Virus record (IMG/VR): IMGVR_UViG_3300044856_000069
Location: 1-41,696 of that record
From: a virus
Direction: 5' to 3' (one strand)
DNA: 41,696 nucleotides
Shown: positions 4,509-41,696 of the stretch, piece after piece
Position numbering within the stretch: the first letter of the stretch is position 1
Layout of the letters: each line of letters opens with the position of its first letter
Translations under genes and position numbers: made by a program
Notes under the pieces: generated by a model
Seen by the model: the letters and a program-made list of their open reading frames with translations, nothing else
What the model was told of the DNA's origin: nothing
Database searches by the model: none

Positions 4509-5172
4509 CAATATCCTCCTTGCTTAACCGGCGTCTGGCCTTCCCAGACTTGCTGTCCTGATCAGCCCAATAACAGATGGTCGCAAAGTGGTCTGCGTAC
4601 TTTTTCCCGGAAGATTTCATATACATCGACAACCGGTCAATTTTTTGCTGCCAATCTGGGAATTTTTCCTGCAGCTGCTGCAATTCTTTTGCAGTGAGAA
4701 AAACATTGGAATGCGGGCCGTATCGCGCGCGTGTTTCTTCCCCTTCTTCCCCTTCTTCCCCTTCTTCTATAATAGGTAGGTGTCCCGTTTGTGTCCCGCT
4801 TGTGTCCCGCTTGTGTCCCGCTTGTGTCCCATTTTGTGTCCCAGCAAGCTGATATTTTTCCCAATTAACCACGGTAATAACGGTGTTCCGAGGGCTTGTC
4901 TGTGTCTCGATTTGTGTCTCGGTTTTGAGCACATCTATGACACGGAAAAGCGTCCCTCTTGAAATCCGTAAATCCGCCGCTATTTCCCGCAGTTTAAAAA
5001 GCCCCTGGCCAGGCTGCAGCGTAATACGTTTCCCCTCGAACACAACGTCCGTCGGGCGCCATTTTACGCGGCCCAAAATATACATCCAGACAGCTAAAAC
5101 GTTAGGCCGCAGCATCCATGGGTTCCGGAAAATAGACCTGTGGATCTTGATCCAGCCTTTCTCGTCGGCCAT
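4492..5172 (-). CDS. Replisome organizer / replication initiator with N-terminal winged-helix domain
   Basis: N-terminus WIKIHRSIFRNPW...LREIAADLRISRGTLFRVIDVL. A repeat-encoded central linker carries the iterons. The C-terminal domain is DnaD-like in position. Confidence 0.65.
   Translation of the reverse strand: MADEKGWIKIHRSIFRNPWMLRPNVLAVWMYILGRVKWRPTDVVFEGKRITLQPGQGLFKLREIAADLRISRGTLFRVIDVLKTETQIETQTSPRNTVITVVNWEKYQLAGTQNGTQAGHKRDTSGTQTGHLPIIEEGEEGEEGEETRARYGPHSNVFLTAKELQQLQEKFPDWQQKIDRLSMYMKSSGKKYADHFATICYWADQDSKSGKARRRLSKEDIDDILS
4735..4922. repeat. Putative origin of replication: iterons inside the organizer gene
   Basis: GTGTCCC occurs at 4780, 4791, 4802, 4813, 4824 and 4836, giving an 11-bp phase. 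TTCTTCCCC is repeated 3.5 times (4735..4767). TGTGTCTCG occurs twice (4901, 4914). An AT-rich stretch spans 4850..4885. Confidence 0.6.
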
Positions 5173-5184
5173 GGTACCGCCTCC

Positions 5185-5481
5185 CTAAAACAAACTCTGC
5201 ACCGTAGTCATGTACGGCATAATGTCCTCTACGGACCGGGCCAGGATGTACGGCGCATGACCTGCCACCGCAGCCTGGTACCTTTTCTGTGCCGGGCTCT
5301 GCCGGCCGTCCTTTGACTTGCACTCGATCAGGATAACCCTGCCGCCTTTGTAGGCTTCCATGTCAGGCCGCCCAGGAACCACATAAGGACCGAACTGCGG
5401 GTTACTTTGCACGAACCAGCCGTCGGCCTTCAGCATTTTCTTTATTGAGTCCTTGACTCTGTTCTCCGGCGTGTCTTTCAT
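5185..5481 (-). CDS. VRR-NUC domain nuclease (PD-(D/E)XK)
   Basis: GRPDMEAYKGGRVILIECKS carries the D...E.K catalytic pattern. About 98 aa, a typical VRR-NUC size. Confidence 0.7.
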   Translation of the reverse strand: MKDTPENRVKDSIKKMLKADGWFVQSNPQFGPYVVPGRPDMEAYKGGRVILIECKSKDGRQSPAQKRYQAAVAGHAPYILARSVEDIMPYMTTVQSLF

Positions 5482-6173
5482 ACTCCCTCCATGTACACCG
5501 GTACCGCTACTACCCCGCGGATTTTATCCACCGCGGCCTGCTTGTTTAGATTCCGATCAGAACCGTGCAGCAGATACACGGCATGCGTCTTGGACAAGTC
5601 CTGCGTCTTCAGGAACGCCGCCACGTGGTCCACCGACATGTGGCTTTGCAGTATCCGTTTTGCCTGGGCCTCATGCACCGCACCGGCCGTGATGTTTTCT
5701 TGCAGGATAGGCAGCTCATAGTTGCACTCCAGCATCCATACCGTCACGTGCGGGAAAAGGTATGGCAGCACGTAGGTATCCGTCGCGAATACCACCCGTT
5801 CTCCATCCGGAGAATCCACAATGTAGCCGACAGGATCCGCTGCATCATGCTTTGTCCTAAAGGCCGTGACCGTCCATCCGTTCAAACGTAGCGCTTTCCC
5901 GGGCTTCGGGATTGCATGCCCCACTTTCAAGAGAGCCTGGGTTCCTGCACTCATATAAACCGGGATCCCAGCCCGCCAATACTGTCCTACATACCCGGCA
6001 TGATCCCCATGCTCGTGCGTCACAAAGCACCCAGCGACGCGGGATAGGCCCGTAGACAACTTTTTGCGGAGCCGGAATAGCGAGATGCCAGCTTCCAGCA
6101 AAAGGACGCTGTCGGCGCATCGCAACGCACAACAATTCCCTTTACTGGAGCTGGACAAAACATCGATAATCAC
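5478..6173 (-). CDS. MBL-fold metallo-hydrolase (putative nuclease)
   Basis: HxHxDH motif THEHGDH. GTG start immediately after the recT stop codon. Confidence 0.75.
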   Translation of the reverse strand: MIIDVLSSSSKGNCCALRCADSVLLLEAGISLFRLRKKLSTGLSRVAGCFVTHEHGDHAGYVGQYWRAGIPVYMSAGTQALLKVGHAIPKPGKALRLNGWTVTAFRTKHDAADPVGYIVDSPDGERVVFATDTYVLPYLFPHVTVWMLECNYELPILQENITAGAVHEAQAKRILQSHMSVDHVAAFLKTQDLSKTHAVYLLHGSDRNLNKQAAVDKIRGVVAVPVYMEGV

Positions 6174-10820: not shown

Positions 10821-10871
10821 GGTTGATTTTCCATATTTCTAAACTTTTTTTACATTTTGCACGTTTTTTTG

Positions 10872-10900
10872 TTGCGTTTTCTGTACAAAGATGGTATATT
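10872..10900 (+). promoter_or_regulatory. Repressor promoter (TTGCGT-17-TGgTATATT)
   Basis: -35 at 10872..10877 and -10 at 10895..10900 with TG at 10892..10893. Positioned back-to-back with the lytic promoter. Confidence 0.55.
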
Positions 10901-10921
10901 GTCACCAAGGAGGATTTGATC

Positions 10922-11293
10922 ATGACCAACAATATATTCGCTACACGGATGCGGCAGGCAATGAATGAAAAAAATGTAACAGCCGCAGAGTTGGTCCGGA
11001 TGACTGGCATCGGAAAGTCAGCTATTAGCTCGTACCTTTCCGGACGTTACCTGCCAAAACAGAATAATACATTTTACATAGCCAGAGCACTTGAAGTGTC
11101 CCCCGCATGGTTAATGGGCGGAAGCATTAAAGAGCCGCCAACTCAACTCCCTGTGCTCACAACTGCTGATCAGGCGCTCCTGGATGATTTCCATAAACTT
11201 AATGATACGGGTCGCGCGATTGCGCTCGGAGCGGTAAAAAGTCTCACGTTGAACCCTGAATATATTGAAAAGGAAAAAGCCACATCCGCGTAG
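10922..11293 (+). CDS. cI-like prophage repressor, XRE-family HTH, 123 aa (no S24 peptidase domain)
   Basis: ATG at 10922 after AAGGAGG. HTH NVTAAELVRMTGIGKSAISSYLSGRYLPK...ARALEVSPAWLMGG. Confidence 0.75.
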   Translation: MTNNIFATRMRQAMNEKNVTAAELVRMTGIGKSAISSYLSGRYLPKQNNTFYIARALEVSPAWLMGGSIKEPPTQLPVLTTADQALLDDFHKLNDTGRAIALGAVKSLTLNPEYIEKEKATSA

Positions 11294-11308: not shown

Positions 11309-11824
11309 ATGTTAAAACGACTTTATAAAAAGTTAATTTCCTTAGTTGGCAGTAAGTCACAATCAAATCCGCTACCAAACCCCAAGACATGGCGAGAAGC
11401 ATTCGAGCAGGCACATGGGCAGCAAGCACGAGAAAGTGATGCACTTCTCCGAAAAGAAGCCAAACGCCTCACTGGATCGGAAAATTACAATACTTTTACT
11501 TTCAGTAAAGCCAGAGTCAGAGAAGCAGGAATCCATTGGTATATATGGGAAACATGTCAGGACTCCAGGGTAAGGCCAAGCCACAAAAACCTGCAAGGGG
11601 TAATTGTAAATTATAACGAAGCTCCCAACGCAGAACTGCTAATCGGAAACGGCCCCGGAACAAAACGCCATGCCGGAACTGCAAAAGGATGTAGATGCTA
11701 TGCCGCTCCGCTGATTATGGCCAGCGATGTGCATTGGCCTGCACGCGTTCATTACCAAGGCAAAATCAGAGTTATGACATTGTCAGAATTTAAAAAGATT
11801 TGCAAAGATAACATTTTTTACTAA
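11309..11824 (+). CDS. Stand-alone MuF/SPP1-gp7-type domain protein, paralogue of the virion minor head protein, 171 aa
   Basis: WYIWETCQDSRVRPSHKNLQGVIV...GCRCYAAPLI...WPARVHYQGKIRVMTLSEFKKI aligns with WYVWRSEEDSRVRDSHRLMDGVLI...NCRCYPEPLI...WPHKVYYGGRIQMMTLAQFKAI of ORF 34258..35106. Starts 16 nt after the repressor stop codon. Confidence 0.75.
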   Translation: MLKRLYKKLISLVGSKSQSNPLPNPKTWREAFEQAHGQQARESDALLRKEAKRLTGSENYNTFTFSKARVREAGIHWYIWETCQDSRVRPSHKNLQGVIVNYNEAPNAELLIGNGPGTKRHAGTAKGCRCYAAPLIMASDVHWPARVHYQGKIRVMTLSEFKKICKDNIFY

Positions 11825-12196: not shown

Positions 12197-13387
12197 ATGT
12201 CAGTATTCAAAAACCCAAACGGCCTGTGGTACGCCAGGATCTCAACCGGCCAGAAAAACGAAAAAGGAAACTACACCTACGTCACCAGCAAACACGGCCG
12301 CAAAAGCCGCAGTGACGCCCTAATGGACGAAGCAGAGCTCCGTGTGTTCGTAGCCAGCAATAAGGCCGACACACTGACGCGGATCCGGAACCATGAGCTC
12401 CTGGACCGGTACATGGCCACCAAGGGCATCCGGAAAACAACAGCCAAAACTTACCGCAGCGCCGTGAACCACATCAAGCGCCTGCTGCCGGATATCCCCG
12501 CCCGGGATACCACCACCATGCACATGGAAGCCTACCGCCAGGCTGTGCTCCAGGAACCGGTGGCCACGTGTACCCACCGCACCCTCATCTCCCTGGTCAA
12601 GGCAGCCTTCACATGGGCCGCAGATAACGATATGATCATCAAGTCCCCGGCCCGGAACCTGAAGCTGCCGGAGCGGGCCGAACCCGCCGGTATGCATGTG
12701 CAGATAGATCTGCTGCAGGAAATTCTGCAGACTGCCAAAACCTACCGGTACAGCCAGCTGTACATCCCGCTGCTGTTGGCCGGGATGTGCGGGCTCCGGA
12801 TTTCAGAGATCTGCGGTCTGCAGGATAAGGATGTGACCGCGGATCACGTCCAGGTGCGGTACAATTTCCTGCGGGCCGACAGCGCACCGAGCCTGCAGCC
12901 ATTAAAGACCAAAGCAGCAGCTCGCGTGGTGCCCCTGATTCCCGCTGTGCGCCGCGAAATTAAAGAGTACAAGGCTTTTATCAAGTCATGCCGTAAAGCG
13001 GCCCTGCAGGCCCGTATGGAGGCCAAAAAGAACCCCTGTTTCTTAGACGGCGATGCGCCATGGGATGAAAGCGGATTCTTTTTTGTGTTCCCCAAAGATG
13101 GCCGGCCCCACGCCAAAGAATATGTGGAACGGCAATGGAAGCGGTTCAAGCAGTCCCCTGAGATGAAGCCGCTGATCAGCAAGCACCCGGAGCTGGCCGG
13201 GATGCGGCTCCATGACTTCCGGCACTCTTTCGGATCCAACCTGCGGTACGCCGGAGCGCCGATCGAGGACGTGACGGAAATCCTGGGCCACACAAACAGC
13301 AACTTCACCCGGACGACCTACGCGCTGCCGATGCAGGGCACCCATGAGCGCAGTATGGCGCGGTTTGCTAAGCTCTGTAAAAAATGA
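12197..13387 (+). CDS. int: Tyrosine integrase with N-terminal arm-binding (AP2-like) domain
   Basis: Catalytic region HDFRHSFGSNLRYAGAPIEDVTEILGHTNSNFTRTTYA. N-terminus NGLWYARIS...GNYTYV. AGAGG RBS. Confidence 0.9.
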   Translation: MSVFKNPNGLWYARISTGQKNEKGNYTYVTSKHGRKSRSDALMDEAELRVFVASNKADTLTRIRNHELLDRYMATKGIRKTTAKTYRSAVNHIKRLLPDIPARDTTTMHMEAYRQAVLQEPVATCTHRTLISLVKAAFTWAADNDMIIKSPARNLKLPERAEPAGMHVQIDLLQEILQTAKTYRYSQLYIPLLLAGMCGLRISEICGLQDKDVTADHVQVRYNFLRADSAPSLQPLKTKAAARVVPLIPAVRREIKEYKAFIKSCRKAALQARMEAKKNPCFLDGDAPWDESGFFFVFPKDGRPHAKEYVERQWKRFKQSPEMKPLISKHPELAGMRLHDFRHSFGSNLRYAGAPIEDVTEILGHTNSNFTRTTYALPMQGTHERSMARFAKLCKK

Positions 13388-33016: not shown

Positions 33017-34261
33017 TTATACCTCCTTCTTGTAGTGCGGATTGTATTTTGCCGCAATCTCACGGCCCAGGGCCGCATCGTCAACAGGTTTGGAATCTTT
33101 TGCCCGGCGGGTAGCCTTCTGAATAGCCACGTAGCCGGAGTCGCGCACATTGCCGCGGATCATCTGCGCCAGTGCGTCAGCAGCCCGACGACGCTGTGCT
33201 TTATTCGGGATAGCAGCCACCACCGGACGCAGTGCTTTGATGGCTTCAATAGCAGCATCGCGCGCGCCGCAGCCGTCCTCCACAGCGTCCCCGGATTCTT
33301 CTGCTTCGATCAGGCCGTCAGCAACCGCGCTCTGGGCCTCGTTGATTTCTTCCGGATCCGCTTCCACAGCGTCCTCATCTTCAACGTCTTCCCGGTCGGT
33401 CAGCTCTTCCTCCAGGGCATCCAGAGCATCGCCTTCCTCTTCGTCGACGTCCGCCTCAGTACCGGCTTCTTCCTCTTCTTCCGGAACCGTGTCCTCAGCC
33501 GGCGGCGCCAGTCTCGCAGTCAGATCTGCGAGCGCATCTTCAATGCGTTTAAATCTGGCTTCTCTGGCTTCATTCGGGTCTTCCGGTTCTGCAGGGCTTT
33601 CATCCTTGCCGTCACCGTTGACCAGTTTCGCAGCCTCCAGCGCTTCTTCCGGGTCGGCGTCCTTGGCGAACGCAGCCCACATGCGCTGTAAAATATTACC
33701 TTTGCTCATGCGTTTTTCGCTCCTTTCCATCGCATTGTCATGTATGGCCACGCCGTGGCCGGCGCGACCTTTATCCACGACAGCAACGTGGTTCCCGCGA
33801 ATTTCTCTTTGTTCCAAGGTGTGGTCGCCAGTCGGAACCCACAAGCAGTTGTACCCGCATGAGATTTCACGTTTGCCATCTTGAACCGCGCGAACCAACG
33901 CGCCATCGTGAATAACTAAATCAGCCACCAGGCAGCCTTCATACTTGCCTGTGCCTTTCCGGACGTCCCGCACAACGCCCCGTGTGTATTGTCCGTAGTT
34001 TTCAGACGTCACGTCTTCATCCGGGTGGTTTTCCGTTACCGGCTTACCCTCAAAAGACGCCACCGCCGCCGGGGAAAAGACCTCATCTGCAGGACGGTTC
34101 ACCTTGAAAATTTCATCCGGGCGCTCGGTCTGTCCGATCTCCCGTCCCAGATAGTCCTGCACGCCAACGCGCGCGATGGGTACATCCCTGCAAATTAAAA
34201 AGCCCTCTGGCGTGCGGCTTATGCTGTCAGAGATGCGGCTTCCATAATATGCGGTTTTCAT
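33017..34261 (-). CDS. Scaffold / prohead-core protein (DUF2213-like) with acidic C-terminal half
   Basis: N-terminus EGFLICRDVPIARVGVQDY...FEGKPVTENHP. Long Asp/Glu-rich tract. Confidence 0.55.
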   Translation of the reverse strand: MKTAYYGSRISDSISRTPEGFLICRDVPIARVGVQDYLGREIGQTERPDEIFKVNRPADEVFSPAAVASFEGKPVTENHPDEDVTSENYGQYTRGVVRDVRKGTGKYEGCLVADLVIHDGALVRAVQDGKREISCGYNCLWVPTGDHTLEQREIRGNHVAVVDKGRAGHGVAIHDNAMERSEKRMSKGNILQRMWAAFAKDADPEEALEAAKLVNGDGKDESPAEPEDPNEAREARFKRIEDALADLTARLAPPAEDTVPEEEEEAGTEADVDEEEGDALDALEEELTDREDVEDEDAVEADPEEINEAQSAVADGLIEAEESGDAVEDGCGARDAAIEAIKALRPVVAAIPNKAQRRRAADALAQMIRGNVRDSGYVAIQKATRRAKDSKPVDDAALGREIAAKYNPHYKKEV

Positions 34262-35106
34262 GCTGCAGCAGCACCTCCTATCGCTTTAAACTGTGCCAGC
34301 GTCATCATCTGGATGCGCCCGCCATAATAGACCTTGTGCGGCCATTTGATATCGGTGAACAGGATCAGCGGCTCCGGATAGCATCGGCAATTGAAAATGT
34401 CGCCTGCGTGATAACTTCCGTAGGTCCGGTCTTCGCCGGCCAGGGCCTCCGGGCTCGGCGGGTCGTCCCAGCTTATGAGCACACCGTCCATGAGCCTGTG
34501 AGAGTCTCTGACGCGCGAATCTTCTTCGGACCGCCATACATACCAGCGGATGCCTGCCGCCTCGCTACGGGCCTGTGTGAGCACCGTGGACGCCTTGCTG
34601 GATTCGGTCCTTGCTATCAGCATCGCGTGCGCCCGGGTCATATGCGGCCATTTTTCCAGAACGTCCTCCATGATCGCTTCAGGGCGCAGGCCCTCGTTGG
34701 CTTCCCGGGCTACCATTTCTGTAACCTGTTTTGCCACCCGCTCCGGCATGGATTTGATCACTTCCGCGTTTCTGTCCACAATGTCCCAGAACGCAGTGCC
34801 GACTGCAGTCTGCCCCAGCTCTGTCTGCAGAGCGTTATATACGACGCGCCCTTTAGCCCCGGACCGGGCCGCCTCCCGCCACGTTCGGTGCCCGTCGGAA
34901 AAGATGTGCGTCGCAATGGACCGCGCCAATATAGCCGCTGCTTTCTGGTAGGTAGGGCTGCGGGCGTACCTTCGGATAGCCGCAGCTATTAAAAAAGGAC
35001 TCCGGACCCGAGATAACTCGGTCCGAAGCCCTTCTATCATTCGCGCCAGCGCCACGCCGTAACGGCGCTCAACTGATCGCTTTAATTGCCATTGTGGATA
35101 TCTCAT
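34258..35106 (-). CDS. Minor head protein, MuF / SPP1 gp7 family
   Basis: MLIARTESSKA...WYVWRSEEDSRVRDSHRLMDG...NCRCYPEP. Confidence 0.8.
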   Translation of the reverse strand: MRYPQWQLKRSVERRYGVALARMIEGLRTELSRVRSPFLIAAAIRRYARSPTYQKAAAILARSIATHIFSDGHRTWREAARSGAKGRVVYNALQTELGQTAVGTAFWDIVDRNAEVIKSMPERVAKQVTEMVAREANEGLRPEAIMEDVLEKWPHMTRAHAMLIARTESSKASTVLTQARSEAAGIRWYVWRSEEDSRVRDSHRLMDGVLISWDDPPSPEALAGEDRTYGSYHAGDIFNCRCYPEPLILFTDIKWPHKVYYGGRIQMMTLAQFKAIGGAAAA

Positions 35107-36350
35107 TTTTTCAGCTCATTAAATACCGCATCAAAAGCGTCCCCGGAAACATCATTCAAAAGAATGTCTGACAAATTTTTCTGCCGGTCTTCATCAAACC
35201 CGAGCCCCGGATCGTTGATTTTTTGCTGCAGGGCACCAACGGCCTTATGGAAATTACCGTCGGCCATGTACATCTCGGACTTCAGCATCATGGCCACCAT
35301 TGCGTGGTCGTTTTTCCCCTGCTGAATGTACTTCTTAGTTAGGTCGTCCATTTTTTGACCAGAAGCAGCAGCGCCCTGCGTTTTTGCATACTTACGCGCA
35401 GCCTCGATCTTAGGTCTTGCCTTTTGCAGTGTGGCGGCCGGAGCCGCAGCAGGCTTGGCCTGTTTTTCCTGCTTTTCTGAAGCCTTCATATAGGCTTTCT
35501 CGGCCTTGATCGCTTTTTGCTTTGCCATCTGCATGGCCTGCTTGTAAATTTCCGGATTCCGGTACAAGTCGTGCAGTCCTTTAGCATTCTCGGTAAAAGC
35601 TACATACCTGTTAAACGCGTCCTTGTACTCATTTTCTAACTGCTCAATGCTTTTTTCAGGTTTCGCAGCCTTCGGTTGCGGTTTGGGAGCCGGCTGCGCA
35701 GCCTTTGCCAACTTGCGCGTAGCCGCGATCTGCGGGCGGCCTTTTTCCAGCGTGGCCTTGGCAGCCTGGAACTTTTTCTGCTCCGCTTCCAGCGCCTGCT
35801 TCTGCGGATAAAGCTGATTCATGGTCTTCTCGTAGTTTTTGCGGCGCAAATCATCACGACGCCCGTTCAGGCCATACTCCTCATTGATATCCCGCTTTTT
35901 TTGCATCAATTTGTCGTATTTGTCGCTATACTCCTTCATCAGGCCCTTGCCTTTTTCTTTTACGCGCTCAGCCAGGCTTTCCATTCCGGGTTTGTTTTTT
36001 AAACGGCCGTAAGCATGGCTATAACGCCAGTCTTTTTGATGGTTATCCCAGAGATTCTGAATGTCTTTATCGACGTCCGCCTTTAGCTTTTCACCGCGAG
36101 CCATGTTACTTTTAAACTGTGAAACTGCGGTTTTTTTCGCTTTTTCAATTCCGGCATTTACACCAGCCAAAGCGCTGGACACGTTCTTCAATTGCTGGAC
36201 CTTCGCCTTCCCGCCGGACTGCGCCTTGATCACCGTCGCACCGCCTCCAGACGTGAACTGCCCATTGTCCGCCCGTTTGTGCTTGGACTCGTCCCATTCT
36301 GCATCACACGCACGGATGCGTTCCAGGTTTATCTGCGTTTTATCAGCCAT
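35103..36350 (-). CDS. Lys-rich helical virion-associated protein (possible internal/ejected protein), 415 aa
   Basis: GGAGGT RBS and its own promoter. The N-terminal motif DAEWDESKHKRADNGQFTSGGG is shared with the portal extension. Contains internal duplicated ATL(E/Q)K(G/A)RP(Q/K)I modules. Confidence 0.6.
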   Translation of the reverse strand: MADKTQINLERIRACDAEWDESKHKRADNGQFTSGGGATVIKAQSGGKAKVQQLKNVSSALAGVNAGIEKAKKTAVSQFKSNMARGEKLKADVDKDIQNLWDNHQKDWRYSHAYGRLKNKPGMESLAERVKEKGKGLMKEYSDKYDKLMQKKRDINEEYGLNGRRDDLRRKNYEKTMNQLYPQKQALEAEQKKFQAAKATLEKGRPQIAATRKLAKAAQPAPKPQPKAAKPEKSIEQLENEYKDAFNRYVAFTENAKGLHDLYRNPEIYKQAMQMAKQKAIKAEKAYMKASEKQEKQAKPAAAPAATLQKARPKIEAARKYAKTQGAAASGQKMDDLTKKYIQQGKNDHAMVAMMLKSEMYMADGNFHKAVGALQQKINDPGLGFDEDRQKNLSDILLNDVSGDAFDAVFNELKK

Positions 36351-36381: not shown

Positions 36382-36410
36382 ATGTTAGCTCTGACTTTTT
36401 GAAAAGTCAA
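36382..36410 (-). promoter_or_regulatory. Promoter-box copy P2 (TTGACT-17-TAACAT) heading the head-tail-lysis operon
   Basis: Minus strand: GGCTTGACTTTTCAAAAAGTCAGAGCTAACATGACC. The 18-bp near-palindrome TGACTTTTCAAAAAGTCA overlaps the -35. Confidence 0.55.
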
Positions 36411-36432: not shown

Positions 36433-36464
36433 TATAAAAAAACCGCTGGTGTTTAACCAGCGGT
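36433..36464 (-). terminator. Strong intrinsic terminator between the portal unit and the head genes
   Basis: Perfect 9-bp stem ACCGCTGGT-n5-ACCAGCGGT followed by UUUUUUUAU on the minus strand. Confidence 0.75.
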
Positions 36465-36470
36465 AAAGAG

Positions 36471-36680
36471 TTACATGGACAGCAGGTCCACCATCGACGC
36501 GGCCAGCCGGAGCCTTTCGGTTTCCGGACCGTCCGGTGCCTTCGCGACTTCTTCAATCTCGATAGCGGCGCATTTTTCGTACAGGTCCTCCAGCGCATCA
36601 TCGTCCATCGCATTCAAGTCGTCCAGCGTGAGATCGAATTCAGACTTTAAAAAATCCAGATGTTCTTGATTTATTCCCAT
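36471..36680 (-). CDS. Small highly acidic protein, 69 aa (candidate immunity/antidote or DNA mimic)
   Basis: AGGAGG 7 nt upstream of ATG 36680. Starts 41 nt inside the portal 3' end. Translation: MGINQEHLDFLKSEFDLTLDDLNAMDDDALEDLYEKCAAIEIEEV... Confidence 0.65.
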   Translation of the reverse strand: MGINQEHLDFLKSEFDLTLDDLNAMDDDALEDLYEKCAAIEIEEVAKAPDGPETERLRLAASMVDLLSM

Positions 36681-38706
36681 CCTTGCGCCTCCTGTACACA
36701 TGCATGACACTCATGATCTGCCCGTTTCCGTCGACAACAACGCGCTTGTTGTCCTTTTCATAGCAGGTCGTGTTCGGGCGGTTTCCCGGAAAAGACCGCG
36801 CCGCGGTCTGCAAAATGTCCATAACCTGCCTCGGCGGGATATCCCTGCCAATCATACGGACGTTTGCATGGCTCGTGATCTTCGTGATTTTTCCACCCGG
36901 AAAAGAGCGCCCGAGCAATTGTTTTTTAGCATTTCGCATATTAGCATCATACTGGCCAGGTGTCAAGTCCTCTTTTACGACATTGTCCCCGGAAACAGTT
37001 TTTAATTGCTCGATTTGGGCCTGGACCTCCGGCGTGCTTTTTTGGTTCCAGAGCGCCGTGAGTTTCTGACGCGCCTGGTCGCGTTCGCCTTTGTTTTTAC
37101 CGACGCCGGAACCGGCCCTAAACTTTCCGTCGTCGCCCCGAGGGTGCTCGGATTCATCCCAGTCTGCATCTAAAACATGAAATAAGGCCGCGTCGCGCCC
37201 AGATTCGCCCGCTGTCGCATTTTCGTTCCCGGCCCGACCACTTCCTTGCCCCGGTTCGTTTCCGGGCCGCTGTGGCGGTTTTGGAGCGTCGGTTTTTTCG
37301 CCGCCCCCAAAATCCATGCCCGGCGGCATCATTTCACCCGGGTCCTCGATCTCATCCGGTGCTTTTTCGATGTCTTCGTCGGTAATGTTCGTCCAGACGC
37401 CGGTCCGTTCTGACTGCTGCTTCAATTCCTGCAGGCCCGTGCGCTTGGAAATCATGCCGGCATTCAGCGCAGCCACCACATTGTCGGTGCCGGTCTTCGC
37501 CAGCTCCATGCGCTCCTTATCGGACGGCTCGCTAACCGGATTGAAGTCGAAGTCAAGGTCGTCCGGTACCGCCCCAAACATCGACACCATGAACGGCGGC
37601 AGCAGCTTATTCAGGATCGGCCGCAGGATGCTCTCCTGCTTTTCACCAATCATGTCGTAGTAATTCTGCAGGTCGGATTCACCCGTAGCGTTTAACCCCG
37701 ACGGACTCCGGCCGAACAACTTTGTAACCGGAATCTCGGCAGCGCCGGAGACATCCATTATAAATTGCTGATAGCAGTCAGCCAGGCCGCCGAACGTATA
37801 CTGGTGTGTTTCAAAGCCGTCCGCAGCGTCCATGATCTGGATTCCCATGTTGGACGCCAGCCAATTCTGTGCGGTCAGCGTGCGGTACAGCTCCGCCTGG
37901 CTCTGCGGGTCGGTGGCAGCAAGCGTCTGCCCGATGTCATTCATCTTCAGCACCCGCAGGTTTGCGAGAAACGTCAGCTGCGCGATGTTCCAAGAAACAT
38001 TATCGCGTTTTTTGAGCTCGTCAAACACCGACTCGATAACCGACGCGCCCCAGTACAGCTCCGCCTGGCGCTCCCAGAACGGTAGGTTATTACCAACAAA
38101 CCGGATGCAGCGCGTGTGGTGCACCCGCGTCATGGCCCCGTCCACCGGGTCGGTCACGATGTACGCGTCAGGCAGCCCATATTCTGGATCTGAAATATCG
38201 TCCACCAGCTCGCTGGACGGACTAACACCATTCCATCGGTCCAGAATCATAAGCCCCTTAAAGTCCCCCGGAACCATCTCCTCCAGCGCCAGCGGCATGG
38301 CCAACTGCTCCGGGCTGCCCTGGCCTTTGATTAGCATGATGCCAATGGCCCCGCCATACAGACGGCCCCAGCACAAGCCCTCCTGAATCTTTTTGATGAG
38401 CTGTGTGCGTCGTAGCTCCACGTCTATTTTTTTGATGAGGTCCGGAGCCAGACCCGACGTGATGGTAATCCAGTTTTTCAACATGTCGGCCGGAATGATG
38501 TCCACGATGCGCCGCACGATCCAGGAATCCCGGTACATGGCGTTCAAAGTACCGAAGTCGTTGGTCATACGGCTCATAACATACTGCGTGCTGTCTAACA
38601 GGTTCGGCGTTCCGGCACCCAGGCGCGCTAAAGGATTGCTGAATCCATCAAGCGCCGTCCCGCGCCGCACAACCAGCGCCTGTGCGATTTTCTTTTTTTT
38701 ACGCAC
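36640..38706 (-). CDS. Portal protein (DUF1073-like) with a ~175-aa C-terminal extension ending in a RelE/DUF4258-like domain
   Basis: Portal core NAMYRDSWIVRRIVDIIPADMLKNW... Low-complexity linker, the DWDESEHPRGDDGKF motif, and the tail ITSHANVRMIGRDIPPRQVMDIL...KRVVVDGNGQIMSVMHV. GTG start at 38706, 6 nt after GGAGGA. Confidence 0.75.
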   Translation of the reverse strand: MRKKKKIAQALVVRRGTALDGFSNPLARLGAGTPNLLDSTQYVMSRMTNDFGTLNAMYRDSWIVRRIVDIIPADMLKNWITITSGLAPDLIKKIDVELRRTQLIKKIQEGLCWGRLYGGAIGIMLIKGQGSPEQLAMPLALEEMVPGDFKGLMILDRWNGVSPSSELVDDISDPEYGLPDAYIVTDPVDGAMTRVHHTRCIRFVGNNLPFWERQAELYWGASVIESVFDELKKRDNVSWNIAQLTFLANLRVLKMNDIGQTLAATDPQSQAELYRTLTAQNWLASNMGIQIMDAADGFETHQYTFGGLADCYQQFIMDVSGAAEIPVTKLFGRSPSGLNATGESDLQNYYDMIGEKQESILRPILNKLLPPFMVSMFGAVPDDLDFDFNPVSEPSDKERMELAKTGTDNVVAALNAGMISKRTGLQELKQQSERTGVWTNITDEDIEKAPDEIEDPGEMMPPGMDFGGGEKTDAPKPPQRPGNEPGQGSGRAGNENATAGESGRDAALFHVLDADWDESEHPRGDDGKFRAGSGVGKNKGERDQARQKLTALWNQKSTPEVQAQIEQLKTVSGDNVVKEDLTPGQYDANMRNAKKQLLGRSFPGGKITKITSHANVRMIGRDIPPRQVMDILQTAARSFPGNRPNTTCYEKDNKRVVVDGNGQIMSVMHVYRRRKDGNKSRTSGFFKV

Positions 38707-40030
38707 TTGCAATCCTCCTCGCTTTGATCACGGTGGAAACAAAATAACGCAGGGCGTCGCAGCTGTGGTCGTTTATCTTTAACGGCCGCTCTTTCCCGCC
38801 CTGCTCTATCGCCTTATTATCCCAGGCATAGGACTGATGCTCTTTTATCGTGTTCACGCAGCGCCGGTGAAAATGGATCCTGCGCCGCGTCAATAACGTG
38901 TTCACATTGCGGATACCCTCGATAACGCTGTTGTCCGCGTTTATGGTCTCAACCGTCTCCTTCATCCGCAAGCCCCGGTTCCGGAGCTCAATCTTGAAAG
39001 ACGCCGCCGATGGGTCGATGATGGTCCCCGTAGGCCAGACGTCCACCGGGCACTTGTGAATGAAACCAAGCAGATCGTCCGCATATTGGCTGTTGTCTTT
39101 TTCGTAGTTCCCGTCGGCCCGGCTGTCCCAGTAATACTCATCCGTCACCCAGATGTCCTGCCCATCATCCCAGATGTCCAGGTACACCATCGGGTTCACT
39201 GTGCCGTAGTCAATGGCCAGGAACCGACGCATGATGTGTGCATTTTTGTATATCCAGTCCAGCTTCTCATCCCCGAAAAGCAGGTCGTCAGACCAGGCAT
39301 CCCGATAGATCGCACCCTGGGCCGTGACCCAGAGCCCCTGAATGAACCGCTGGTAGAACACGCCAGTGTAGGTCGTTCGGTAACGCTCCTGGACCTCTTC
39401 AGTCAGCGACGGGTTGTCGTCCATAAGGAAGTGTATAAAAAGCAGTTTTTTCTGATCTGCTTTTTCAATCCAGTTTTTCAGGAACCAGTGCATCGGGCTG
39501 TCCGGGTTACAGTTAAACCACATTTTAGCTCCCGGAACGGAGCACCGGCCTGTGGCCTGGTTCACAAAAGACTCCGGCATCAACGCCACTTCGTCGCAGT
39601 AGAGACCCGCCAGCGTGATGCCCTGAATCAGATCCTGTGAAGATTCATCCCGGCCGCCAAACACGTAAAAGTAATTCGTTTTATCGCCTTTGGATATTAC
39701 GATCAGGTTCTCTGTGCGCGACTCCTCGATGGTGAACCGTCGGATCATCAGTACCGGTTTTAACCAGCTCCATACGTTACGCCGGAACGACCCTACCGTC
39801 TTACCGCACATGGCAAAATTCTGGCCGTCGTAGGTGTCCATGGCCCAGAGCACAAAACTGATGGCCATGGCTACCGTCTTCCCGGCACGAATAGAACCGT
39901 CCGCAATGATGCCGTTATGCTTTCGGTACGGCGACTTCTCCGCCCACCACGTCAGCAGCTGCATCTGCTTCAGGCTGAACCGGCTGAACCTTACGACCGG
40001 TTTTATTTGCAGTTTTCTTTTTACGGCCAT
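38699..40030 (-). CDS. terL: Terminase large subunit
   Basis: Walker A GSIRAGKTVA. A typical N-terminal ATPase and C-terminal nuclease layout. ATG at 40030 preferred (GGGGTGA upstream). Confidence 0.85.
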   Translation of the reverse strand: MAVKRKLQIKPVVRFSRFSLKQMQLLTWWAEKSPYRKHNGIIADGSIRAGKTVAMAISFVLWAMDTYDGQNFAMCGKTVGSFRRNVWSWLKPVLMIRRFTIEESRTENLIVISKGDKTNYFYVFGGRDESSQDLIQGITLAGLYCDEVALMPESFVNQATGRCSVPGAKMWFNCNPDSPMHWFLKNWIEKADQKKLLFIHFLMDDNPSLTEEVQERYRTTYTGVFYQRFIQGLWVTAQGAIYRDAWSDDLLFGDEKLDWIYKNAHIMRRFLAIDYGTVNPMVYLDIWDDGQDIWVTDEYYWDSRADGNYEKDNSQYADDLLGFIHKCPVDVWPTGTIIDPSAASFKIELRNRGLRMKETVETINADNSVIEGIRNVNTLLTRRRIHFHRRCVNTIKEHQSYAWDNKAIEQGGKERPLKINDHSCDALRYFVSTVIKARRIASA

Positions 40031-40469
40031 GCCGCTCACCCCACACATCGACGGCGCTGGCCTTGATGGCCTCGGTAAACCCGTCGTCCTCGTATTCCGT
40101 CAGCTGGCCGGCCGTCTTATCCGGCAAAACAGTCTGCCCAATTGTGTCCCTGATATATTCCGCAGCCCGGACGTTCCCTTTTATCGCAGCTGCGATCATC
40201 GCCACCAGGACCTTGTCCTGGACTGTCATATTCGTGGCGCTGTTTAGCGCCTCCACGAACGACGTTATCTCGTGAATAGGTGCGTCGTTTTCTTTGAACC
40301 ATGGCAGCTGGAGCAGGTGTTCAAGCCCCTCTCGCATCGTTCGCCGTTCGCGCTTTGCTTTTCCGGAAGCGGTACCGCCACGCCGGCCATACTCTGCAGC
40401 GTTCTTTTTGGTGATTCTTACCCCCCGCTTCAGGTTTTCCTTTGTGGCTTCCTGCGCCGGACTACGCAA
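39915..40469 (-). CDS. terS: Terminase small subunit
   Basis: Basic N-terminus NLKRGVRITKKNAAEYGRRGGTASGKAKRERR. Position upstream of terL. TTG start. The 3' end overlaps terL by about 116 nt. Confidence 0.55.
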   Translation of the reverse strand: MRSPAQEATKENLKRGVRITKKNAAEYGRRGGTASGKAKRERRTMREGLEHLLQLPWFKENDAPIHEITSFVEALNSATNMTVQDKVLVAMIAAAIKGNVRAAEYIRDTIGQTVLPDKTAGQLTEYEDDGFTEAIKASAVDVWGERHGRKKKTANKTGRKVQPVQPEADAAADVVGGEVAVPKA

Positions 40470-41696
40470 TGACCTCTGCCTTGCCGCCGGTCAGCTGCTC
40501 CCAGCGTTCCACAATTACGTCGCAGTACACCGGGTCGAGCTCCATCATGTAGCAGGCCCTGTGCAGCTGCTCGCACGCGATCAGCGTCGACCCGGAGCCG
40601 CCAAACAAATCCAGTACCGTGTCGTCCCGCTGGCTGCTGTTTTTAATGCATTTAGCACAAAGCGCAATCGGCTTCATGGTCGGATGCTCGCCGTTGCGTT
40701 TCGGTTTGTCAACGTAGATCAGCGTGCTGGCGTCCTCGGTGTTCACAACCTCCGCAGCCGGAACCCGCAGCACCAGGTTCTTGTTCCCCGACGCAAAATT
40801 GATCAGCATGGACCCGTCCGCATCCTGGCTCATCACTACCGGGAAGTTTTCACTGATGGTCGTGCCCTGCTTCCGGCCCCCGAACCAGCGATGCTTCCCG
40901 CCGGCCTTCCAGCCATACAGAATCGGCTCATGTTGCCACTGAAAATCCTGCCGGCCCAGAGTAAAAGTGTTCTTGGCCCAGATCAGGCACTGCTTCAGCA
41001 GCAACCCGGAGTCAACAAACGCCTGCCGGAACGTTAGCGACTCGCTGTCCGCATGGCAGATGTACACCGTAGCCCCGGGCTCCAGGACCTCCTCGGCCCG
41101 CTGATAAAAAGAAAGCAGGAAGTCATAAAACTGACTCCCTGCCATTTTGTCGTTTTTGATTTTTAGGTGTTCTTTTGTACCGCCGGTGTAGTCGATGTTG
41201 TACGGCGGATCTGTGAACATCATGCTCATAGGCACCCCGCCGGTGAGCTTTGCCACATCCGCAGCGTCGGTAGACGACCCGCACATCAGCCGGTGTGCAC
41301 CCAGCTGGTAAATCATTCCGGGCTGTGTTTTCGGTGTTTTGATTTTTTCCACCGCGGCCTCGAAGTCGAACCCGTCCTCCTCCGGTTCCGGATCTGGCAA
41401 CTCGAACCCGAACGCCCGCATGTCAATGTCGGCGATTTGCAGCAGCTCCCCATTCAGCAGCGACTCATCCCAGGACGCCAGCTCGGCCGTTTTATTGTCG
41501 GCCAGCCTGTAGGCCCGTATTTCCTCTTCTGTGAGGTCGTCTGCCCGGACGCAAGGTACCTGCCGCAGGCGTAACCGTTTCGCCTCCTTGAGCCGCGTGT
41601 GGCCGCATACGACCACGTTGTCCTTGTCAATCACAATAGGCTGCCGGAACCCGAACCGCTTGATCGATTCTGCAACCGGCTTCACAGCCGGGTCGT
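40462..41696 (-). CDS. ParB-like nuclease domain fused to an N6A/N4C DNA methyltransferase (3' portion; 5' end at 1..194)
   Basis: ParB-N FGFRQPIVIDKDNVVVCGHTRLKEA. Methylase motif IV DPPY and motif I FGGSGST, in beta-class order. Confidence 0.85.
   Translation of the reverse strand, partial: DPAVKPVAESIKRFGFRQPIVIDKDNVVVCGHTRLKEAKRLRLRQVPCVRADDLTEEEIRAYRLADNKTAELASWDESLLNGELLQIADIDMRAFGFELPDPEPEEDGFDFEAAVEKIKTPKTQPGMIYQLGAHRLMCGSSTDAADVAKLTGGVPMSMMFTDPPYNIDYTGGTKEHLKIKNDKMAGSQFYDFLLSFYQRAEEVLEPGATVYICHADSESLTFRQAFVDSGLLLKQCLIWAKNTFTLGRQDFQWQHEPILYGWKAGGKHRWFGGRKQGTTISENFPVVMSQDADGSMLINFASGNKNLVLRVPAAEVVNTEDASTLIYVDKPKRNGEHPTMKPIALCAKCIKNSSQRDDTVLDLFGGSGSTLIACEQLHRACYMMELDPVYCDVIVERWEQLTGGKAEVIA
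41570..41696. repeat. Second copy of the 127-bp terminal overlap
   Basis: Identical to 1..127. Confidence 0.9.

Follow-up and report, generated by a model that had tools for sequence, protein, structure and literature searches.

Why does the portal protein of a tailed phage continue well past its core, and why does a small acidic gene overlap the end of its gene? These questions are raised by a stretch of viral DNA of 41,696 nucleotides (nt), IMGVR_UViG_3300044856_000069, which we will call the window. Its head genes are on the minus strand, as are all of the features of these genes that are described below. The portal gene (36640..38712) encodes 690 amino acids, and the open reading frame (ORF) that overlaps its 3' end (36471..36680) encodes 69. 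An initial annotation of the window had proposed that the portal ends in an RNase toxin of the DUF4258 or RelE type and that the acidic ORF encodes its partner. We think it likely that the small gene and the 3' part of the portal gene together are a mobile toxin-immunity cassette, which a temperate tailed phage acquired as an in-frame addition to its portal.

The C-terminal domain of the portal and its carriers

The core of the portal protein (residues 1-486; 37255..38712) is the conserved, carrier part. It belongs to the Phage_portal_3 family: PF06381 of Pfam matches residues 56-412 (E = 2e-116) and PHROG 146 ("portal protein") matches residues 15-486. The solved homologues are dodecameric portals, namely those of Pam3 (8hds, E = 1e-43) and E217 (8fvh). 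As had been noted, the ORF does not stop after the core. By its translation, it continues with a low-complexity linker that is rich in Gly, Pro and Glu (residues 487-514; 37171..37254), and comparable stretches follow the core in related portals. Next come the motif DADWDESEHPRGDDGKF (residues 515-531; 37120..37170), which lies at the boundary between the conserved and variable parts and which we will call the junction motif, and a variable spacer (residues 532-589; 36946..37119). The spacer leads to a putative RNase-toxin-like domain with the BECR fold, of the DUF4258/Ntox49 type (residues 590-676; 36685..36945). The protein ends with a short basic tail (residues 677-690; 36640..36684, including the stop codon), which is modeled with low confidence (predicted local distance difference test, or pLDDT, of 54-63); basic tails are common among family members. 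The roughly 80-residue tail that was originally singled out, ITSHANVRMIGRDI (36643..36879), is also as described: it begins at residue 612 (36879) and extends to the stop codon at 36640-36642.

We considered whether the fusion might arise from a frameshift in the assembly. We rejected this explanation because independent assemblies (L001, L002, L005, L006, L026, and L101-L105) have the same fusion.

Relatives of the domain were sought in several ways. A fast word-index search with the last 110 amino acids of the portal found no homologues, a scan of genome contigs with the tail found no relatives, and comparing the tail to 50,697 GenBank phage records with tblastn gave no match, so there is no close copy in that collection. 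A single-sequence search of the PDB with the tail gave only a chance-level match. An exhaustive HMMER search with portal residues 515-690 against 1.84 billion representative proteins gave 88 hits. About 50 of these match the last ~85 residues, and all of those matches end within 0-15 residues of the C terminus; the remaining hits match the WDESEHPR motif only.

We aligned 47 of the tails and built a profile (A1), which matches the window's tail with E = 1.6e-30. PF14076 (DUF4258), with E no higher than 0.01 (best E = 4.8e-8), matches 36 of the 47 members, and Colicin_E5 matches three. The only other Pfam matches among the 47 were two single ones at chance level, and no PBECR family matched. 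The full-length homologues P0011, P0015, and P0039 score above the DUF4258 cut-off (26.4, 29.8, and 29.5 bits). The window's own tail misses it (13.2 bits, E = 0.11, for profile positions 1-27 of 71), so its assignment to DUF4258 is made only through the family profile. Homology to DUF4258, as was proposed, is thus found transitively.

The conserved residues of the family are those expected of a BECR RNase. The predicted catalytic residues are His615 (36870-36868), Arg619, Arg623 (36846-36844), Arg657, and Ser668 (36711-36709). All 47 tails have His615, Arg623, and either Ser or Thr at position 668. Arg619 is found in 87% of them, Gly643 and Arg/Lys657 are nearly invariant, and the window retains all of these. 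This agrees with the published signature of Ntox49 ("predicted BECR fold; H, [KR]"; PMC3482391) and with the BECR pattern as given in section 19 of PMC5512222, with a His within the N-terminal helix plus a Ser or Thr in strand 4. A preprint (10.64898/2026.08.28.747851) identifies DUF4258 with Ntox49 and assigns it to the BECR RNases' colicin-like branch. The domain is very basic (isoelectric point, or pI, of 11.2; charge +14), and its ratio of nonsynonymous to synonymous divergence (dN/dS) against a relative is 0.05.

The predicted structure points the same way. An AlphaFold 2 model built on A1 (pLDDT 88.5, predicted template modeling score 0.76) has three helices followed by four strands. When this model was compared to the PDB with Foldseek, the best matches were BECR toxins, led by CdiA-CT from NC101 (5i4r; E = 0.013, probability 0.99). 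The other top matches were RelE (3g5o, 3bpq, and 9g12), colicin D (1tfk and 5znm), and colicin E5 (3ao9). Colicin E5 was also found by a profile search of the PDB with the tail family, at a sub-threshold E of 0.077. Among predicted viral structures, Foldseek found matches with E of 1.5e-4 to 4e-3, whose names include a DUF4258 protein, "Colicin D", and a minor capsid protein. As judged from its sequence and model, the tail is a divergent DUF4258/Ntox49 domain of the BECR type with an intact catalytic-type signature, and it would be a metal-independent RNase. The initial annotation was therefore right about the BECR fold and DUF4258, but the colicin-like/Ntox49 branch is closer than the RelE/ParE toxins of toxin-antitoxin systems.

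In all of the ~50 representative carriers, the domain is at the extreme C terminus. The carriers include Phage_portal_3 portals (P0004, P0011, and P0042), unrelated portals of the HK97 type (PF04860; P0038, P0039, and P0077), a prohead serine protease (P0053), and polyvalent proteins with NUDIX and ADP-ribosyltransferase domains (P0021 and P0042). There is also an RHS-type carrier (P0015), in which the domain lies right after the sequence "...NPLRYVDPSGF", so the domain counts among the C-terminal domains of polymorphic toxins. Behind this RHS-borne copy, a DUF6578 protein takes the place of a member of the acidic-gene family.

The junction motif has the consensus [DE]-W-[DE]-E-x-x-H-P-R-x3-G-[KRQ]-F-x-G-G-G. 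A loose pattern for it gave 138 matches in the 88 HMMER hits, and these are mostly the motif and its variants. It occurs up to 17 times in one protein of 7334 amino acids, with a spacing of roughly 150-300 residues. The proteins that bear it (P0007-P0088) are polyvalent, and it separates domains of the Zeta-toxin, ART, GNAT, NUDIX, histidine-phosphatase, DUF2213, and portal types. Among the proteins that were scanned, no Pfam model matched the motif, and a literature search (for HPRxxxGxF, KHPR, NPYHD, and similar strings) returned only noise. The motif behaves like a modular joint, and it may be a processing or targeting signal for capsid cargo. In other carriers, two different short motifs take its place before the domain: W-[IV]-T-[IL]-N-G-x-H-[IV] with a Gly-rich stretch, and D-G-G-P-G-S-G (P0004, P0011, P0021, P0076; L101-L105, P0042, P0071).

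The acidic gene, cassette exchange and transcription signals

The acidic gene has the arrangement that was originally described. It starts with an ATG at 36680, overlaps the 3' end of the portal gene by 41 nt, and has a Shine-Dalgarno sequence (AGGAGG; 36688..36693) 7 nt before the ATG. A GTG at 36710 was also considered as the start and was rejected, as the homologues align from the ATG at 36680. The protein has 19 Asp and Glu against 5 Lys and Arg, with a pI of 4.05 and a net charge of -14 (versus +14 for the toxin-like domain). Against the relative from L005, dN is 0.045 and dS is 0.73; since dN/dS is just 0.06, which indicates strong purifying selection, this is a real gene. AlphaFold 2 predicts four helices with high confidence (pLDDT 94), and we predict that this acidic four-helix protein is the cognate inhibitor (immunity protein) of the domain. 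Its family has 39 clusters, which are all annotated as "hypothetical". The family has no match in Pfam, and comparing the predicted structure to the PDB with Foldseek gave only generic helical hairpins, with E above 2.

To count how often the two genes are linked, we searched all of the fetched loci with A1 and with a second profile (A2), for the acidic protein. This gave 21 distinct loci with readable upstream sequence. In 19 of these, the acidic gene is directly downstream of the toxin-like domain. The spacing, in the first set of loci, ranges from a 41-nt overlap to a 25-nt gap. The linkage holds on Phage_portal_3 portals, on HK97-type portals (L009 and L010), and in L015, where the domain is a stand-alone gene of 147 amino acids behind the prohead protease and the acidic gene still follows.

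Two unlinked acidic genes look like orphan immunity genes. One of them (L108, 2250-2846) is in a bacterial context, with MBOAT and DUF4358, and the intact acidic gene is preceded by a remnant of the junction motif and by the last strand of the toxin-like domain. (This gene has its own promoter-like site, TTGCAA-17-TATAAT, with the TG of an extended -10.) The other (L106, 1-672) is third and last in an array that starts with another type of C-terminal domain and the small ORF that goes with it. (The array lies in front of a tape-measure gene.) Over ten loci, the identity of the tail correlates with that of its partner (r = 0.88, Mantel p ~ 2e-4). The acidic protein thus behaves as the coupled partner that it was suggested to be: its gene travels with the domain across unrelated carriers, diverges with it, and, as described below, is exchanged with it.

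Two other observations concern individual cassettes. In L013 (1860-3737), the domain is out of frame with the called portal gene (487 amino acids) and the acidic gene is intact; this is either a toxin that was inactivated by a frameshift, with its antidote retained, or a sequencing error. In L009, a ParE/YoeB-Phd toxin-antitoxin pair (5020-5529, minus strand) lies directly after the HK97-type portal-toxin/antidote cassette.

Comparing near-identical phages shows where the cassette begins and ends. The portal core is 97-98% identical to those of L005 and L002 at the amino acid level, with dN/dS of 0.05-0.06. The proteins of L002 and the window are 98% identical in TerL and in the portal core, with dS of 0.2-0.4. 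Identity falls from 90-98% right after DADWDESEHPRGDDGKF: the spacer has 59% amino acid identity (dS 1.4), the tail 57-59%, and the acidic protein 54%, and dS is saturated in most of the segment from the motif to the terminator. Identity is back to 94% at the terminator, the promoter-like site that follows it, and the first 45 codons of the next gene, which encodes 415 amino acids. It collapses again in the body of that gene and recovers to 91% from the MuF gene onward. Because the near-identical phages diverge so sharply from just behind the motif up to the terminator, we conclude that the toxin/antidote pair is exchanged as a cassette.

We also compared the portals that lie beside the closest terminases (TerL identity of at least 70%, except for L025 at 55%). 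Two of these portals (L020 and L025) have no extension, one (L026) has the same toxin/antidote pair, and four (L019, L021, L022, and L024) have other C-terminal domains, of three sequence types (those of L019 and L021 are similar). A Pfam scan of these alternative domains gave no match. Each of them is followed by different small ORFs (a tandem pair in L022), and two of these ORFs match Cys_rich_CPCC from Pfam. Since the extension is variable, replaced, or missing in related portals, the C terminus of the portal is, to judge from these comparisons, a polymorphic slot, which is the design that defines polymorphic toxin systems. Far from being a conserved structural feature, the extension is variable and dispensable.

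The second region of low identity is in the Lys/Ala/Gln-rich ORF of 415 amino acids (35103..36350). Its first 45 residues are 82-96% identical to those of L005 and L002, and the remainder is 36-41% identical over the part that can be aligned. The conserved leader contains a second copy of the junction motif, AEWDESKHKRADNGQF (36302-36255). PHROG 30637 (a profile of 1119 positions) matches residues 10-102, and no Pfam family was found in this protein. The ORF is missing from L020, L025, and L026. It is probably a second polymorphic slot with a separately encoded capsid cargo. In L006, the ORF at this position has an HExxH-like sequence (HESGH).

The pair was also proposed to end with a terminator of its own and to be followed by a fresh promoter, and both elements are there. 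The intrinsic terminator (36435..36464; hairpin at 36464-36442) has a 9-bp stem, a 5-nt loop, and seven T (U in the RNA). Its folding energy is -15.4 kcal/mol (z = -5.8 versus 200 shuffled sequences, none of which folded as well). It is kept in L002, L005, L013, and L014, with one change from T-A to T-G in L002, L013, and L014. Behind the partner gene, L006, L010, L015, and L026 have unrelated terminators with a hairpin and a T run, and L007 and L009 have terminator-like hairpins, so most of the lineages that we read have such an element there. The promoter-like site that follows, TTGACT-17-TAACAT (36382..36410), matches the consensus at 9 of 12 positions. It lies within the 94%-identical island between the two variable cassettes. 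L002, L005, and L014 keep it, and the copy of L013 has one change in the -35 element. It would restart the transcription of the head genes.

Another promoter-like site, TTGACA-17-TAATAT, with the TG of an extended -10, lies inside the portal gene (36938..36966; 10/12 match), just 5' of the region that codes for the toxin-like domain and 286 nt upstream of the acidic gene's ATG. The L002/L013/L014 clade (10/12), L009 (12/12), and L015 (11/12) have equivalent sites at the same relative position, and L105 has one (11/12) 376 nt upstream. The site is missing in L006, L007, L010, L026, and L100/L103. On the gene strand of the 1.08 Mb of fetched loci, sites that match at 10 or more positions and have the TG occur at a background rate of 4.3e-5 per nt; finding them in five of about eleven lineages within a positional window of ~150 nt is far above this expectation. 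The peptides that are encoded at the site differ between lineages, except for a Leu-Thr pair. In the window, we found no in-frame start codon with a Shine-Dalgarno sequence downstream of the site, so a transcript from it would give the acidic protein only. We hypothesize, by analogy with the immunity genes of colicins, that this is an antidote-only promoter, which could keep lysogens immune.

The head module has the following order: TerL (38699-40048, 449 amino acids), the portal with its BECR domain, the acidic partner, the 415-residue ORF, MuF, DUF2213, a decoration-like small virion protein, and the major capsid protein. MuF is a separate protein of 282 amino acids (34258-35106), without a toxin or an extension, and PHROGs labels the DUF2213 protein (33017-34261) as a head maturation protease. 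The window also encodes an integrase (12197-13387) and a helix-turn-helix (HTH) repressor-like protein (10823-11293), so the phage is temperate. The closest terminases are 70-75% identical and were binned from gut metagenomes, under taxon labels that disagree. Among deposited phages, those of Agathobaculum come closest, with 48% identity in the portal core only.

Three other genes in the window are worth describing. A second, short MuF-like ORF (171 amino acids; 11309-11824, plus strand) matches Phage_Mu_F with E = 2e-8; it adjoins the HTH regulator and the integrase and is distant from the head module, on the opposite strand. A DNA methylase (N6_N4_Mtase; 40462-41685, minus strand) lies just upstream of a small-terminase-like ORF and TerL. 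At its position, L005 and L006 have a gene in which both ParB_N and N6_N4_Mtase are called, while just the methylase domain was detected in the window. The terminase of L005 (1315-2982) has 555 amino acids, with PT-HINT and intein-splicing domains, whereas the window's terminase has neither; the two near-identical phages differ in the presence of this predicted intein.

Proposed role and rival explanations

How might a toxin on a portal be used? We propose that the acidic protein would bind and block the RNase domain late in infection, as the portal is being made. Translational coupling would be possible with the overlap between the genes and the strong ribosome-binding site, and it would favor matched amounts of the two proteins. 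The C terminus of the portal should face the interior of the capsid, so up to twelve copies of the domain would be enclosed in each virion. The domain would then be released from the portal, probably by cleavage in the linker or the junction-motif region, and the freed domain would enter the next cell with the DNA, without its inhibitor, and cut RNA there. By analogy with colicins D and E5 and CdiA-CT from NC101, the substrate could be tRNA. The effect might be to take over the host or to counter its defences, the role that Iyer et al. suggest for polyvalent proteins, or to inhibit non-lysogenic competitors, as has been proposed for MuF toxins. In the case of competition, the internal promoter would make antidote-only transcripts in lysogens, and these would end at the private terminator.

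Several points weigh against a toxin-immunity cassette. The window's tail is below the curated cut-off for DUF4258 (13.2 versus 25 bits). The Foldseek E-values against the PDB are weak (~1e-2), although they are mutually consistent. The partner is unlike any known immunity protein, in sequence or in structure, and simple linkage would equally give the correlated divergence of tail and partner. The internal promoter was noticed post hoc, is missing in about half of the lineages, and partly overlaps the weakly conserved codons for Leu-Thr. Finally, the portal subunit remains in the capsid, so delivery would need the domain to be cleaved off.

We also considered that the extension might be a structural or nucleic-acid-binding appendage of the portal (a basic plug, or an extension of the crown that binds DNA or RNA) with no toxic enzymatic role, and that the acidic protein might be an assembly chaperone that masks it. 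This would fit with a very basic domain and a very acidic partner. Also, some solved portals of this family have long C-terminal regions (the Pam3 portal has 621 amino acids in all, with only residues 30-420 matched), and the inactive BECR domain in the MuF protein of phage Mu probably only binds RNA, according to section 19 of PMC5512222. However, an appendage seems inconsistent with the invariance of His615, Arg623, and Ser/Thr668 across 47 diverse members, with the same domain terminating an RHS-type toxin, with the replacement of a dispensable extension by unrelated domains in closely related portals, and with orphan copies of the partner gene that persist without any portal. We consider it unlikely. 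A different kind of module, which would act in the lysogen instead of being virion cargo, is a selfish type II toxin-antitoxin system of the DUF4258 type (for addiction or abortive infection) that was accidentally fused to the portal. DUF4258 is indeed listed among the type II toxins of the RelE/ParE superfamily (PMC11980606), a promoter-like site and a terminator seem to belong to the cassette itself, and the cassette of L009 adjoins a ParE/YoeB-Phd pair. But an accident would not explain independent in-frame fusions to proteins of the capsid interior (two families of portals, the prohead protease, and polyvalent proteins), nor why the domain is preceded by junction motifs that are typical of polyvalent proteins. 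The gene order is also reversed: the toxin precedes its partner here, while the table in PMC11980606 lists DUF4258 modules with the antitoxin first. The partner has no Pfam match and so no recognizable DNA-binding domain, and with no in-frame start after the internal promoter, no free toxin would be made from it. Nor do any of PADLOC's defence models match the tail, the acidic ORF, or the 415-residue ORF. An accidental fusion of this kind strikes us as quite improbable.

Alternatively, the acidic ORF might have nothing to do with the tail, and might encode a DNA mimic, an anti-restriction protein, or a small head-assembly factor that happens to be at this position. Small, highly acidic phage proteins are often DNA mimics, and this one has no detectable homology to known immunity families. 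Yet the acidic gene tracks the BECR domain, and not the portal, across carriers and contexts. Where related portals are without the domain, this ORF is missing too and any small ORFs there are different ones, and the acidic gene is swapped together with the domain. We find an unrelated ORF very hard to credit.

If the portal does carry a toxin-immunity cassette, then a bolder proposal is that this cassette (promoter, toxin, immunity gene, and terminator) is self-contained and can plug in frame into any protein of the capsid interior, behind a universal junction motif. The motif would be a general signal for release or ejection (such as a site for the prohead protease), whether the effector is fused to a portal or is part of a giant polyvalent protein. 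Lysogens would stay immune through the internal promoter, as with the immunity genes of colicins, and the virions would be kin-discriminating toxin carriers, with twelve copies of the RNase at the channel through which the DNA exits. We are doubtful that all of this holds.

Comparison with known systems

Toxins in phage heads have precedents. A class of delivery by phage-capsid-like MuF proteins has been described, with Ntox49 listed among its toxins (Zhang et al. 2012, PMC3482391). Polymorphic MuF toxins with immunity genes were then defined in temperate phages, and in the Discussion of that study they were proposed to inhibit the growth of non-lysogens (Jamet et al. 2017, PMC5576092). Two MuF-fused toxins, Bxa and Apk2, are toxic in experiments and are neutralized by the adjacent immunity proteins (PMC11699363); the experimental precedent is limited to these MuF-borne toxins. 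Like the cassette proposed here, MuF systems have a conserved protein inside the head whose C-terminal toxin domain varies, at least one small immunity gene immediately downstream, and toxin domains that are common to other polymorphic-toxin families (including, again, Ntox49). They are also found in temperate phages of gut Firmicutes, and delivery with the injected DNA has been proposed for them. In contrast, the carrier here is a Phage_portal_3 portal, an essential dodecameric protein at the DNA channel, in place of a MuF1-4 domain. The partner family is new, all-helical, and acidic, while the family listed for Ntox49 is Imm22. And the junction motif, the internal promoter-like site, and the private terminator are not described in the cited MuF literature.

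The PBECR domains of polyvalent proteins are another close parallel. Their simplest architectures are fusions to MuF and portal domains, and the proteins are predicted to be packaged in the virion and injected into the host (Iyer et al. 2017, PMC5512222). In both cases an effector domain is fused to a head protein, in the context of virion genes, and the window's junction motif is the element that separates the domains of giant polyvalent proteins. But the domain here matches DUF4258/Ntox49 and Colicin_E5, and no PBECR family was matched among the 47 members scanned. Section 19 of PMC5512222 mentions no dedicated inhibitor, whereas a cognate small gene is almost always present here. Iyer et al. 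also propose counter-defence or control of the host, not interbacterial toxicity.

As for DUF4258/Ntox49 itself, the window's domain shares its alpha+beta fold, the conserved His and Arg/Lys, the C-terminal location in RHS, MuF, and other delivery proteins, and structural neighbors such as colicins D and E5 and CdiA-CT. It differs in being from a divergent subfamily, with the window's copy below the Pfam threshold, and in having a different immunity family. Our searches found no experimentally characterized member of this subfamily. DUF4258 is also known as a type II toxin (Gerdes 2025, PMC11980606); unlike in those systems, the toxin-like domain here is fused to a portal and its partner is downstream.

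The proposed cassette is similar to the nuclease colicins (E5, D, and E3/E9) as well: a small, basic tRNase domain of the BECR type at the C terminus of a large carrier, with a small acidic immunity protein encoded immediately downstream. In colicin operons, the immunity gene has a constitutive promoter within the toxin gene and is followed by a terminator. For the window, the analogy to this promoter comes from matches to the consensus only. Also, the carrier here is a virion protein and not a secreted bacteriocin, and there is no lysis gene in the cassette. The Alt protein and the internal proteins (IPI-III) of phage T4 are enclosed in the head, processed by a protease, and injected with the DNA, and they act on the new host; the domain in the window would likewise be enclosed and injected. 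However, the T4 effectors are separate proteins with a short N-terminal capsid-targeting sequence, and they have neither a portal fusion nor an immunity gene, whereas the window's domain is fused to the portal and is accompanied by an immunity-like gene.

Although the MuF family of head toxins is known, how they exit the capsid and how they benefit the phage are still puzzling. A portal-anchored toxin would be a sharper test case, as its copy number (twelve) and its position at the DNA channel are fixed, its release must involve cleavage, and its boundaries are precisely set by the near-identical phages. We see its main value as a clean experimental model. It offers three things to test: a previously undescribed family of small acidic proteins that are likely inhibitors of DUF4258/Ntox49 RNases; a junction motif that is very frequent among capsid-borne polyvalent effectors; and a possible colicin-like, antidote-only promoter within a structural gene. 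If our proposal is correct, it would help to annotate many genes of gut phages that are now "hypothetical", and it would bear on how prophages shape competition among gut bacteria.

Overall, two hallmarks of polymorphic toxins are seen at this locus: a conserved carrier with exchanged toxin domains, and a domain that is common to other delivery families. Genomic linkage, with a partner that is downstream in 19 of 21 loci along with the two orphan-like cases, suggests a third, a cognate immunity gene. The initial annotation considered a portal-borne toxin with a small acidic partner to be an unusual delivery arrangement. But portal and MuF fusions of BECR domains were already published (PMC5512222), as were MuF toxin-immunity pairs, and many metagenomic phages have the arrangement, which is therefore a good example and not a new principle. 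What differs from the published systems is that a portal carrier is combined with a dedicated immunity-like gene and that the domain is DUF4258/Ntox49 instead of PBECR. The acidic partner family is undescribed, the boundaries of the cassette are sharply defined, and the candidate internal promoter and the terminator are not reported in the literature cited here.

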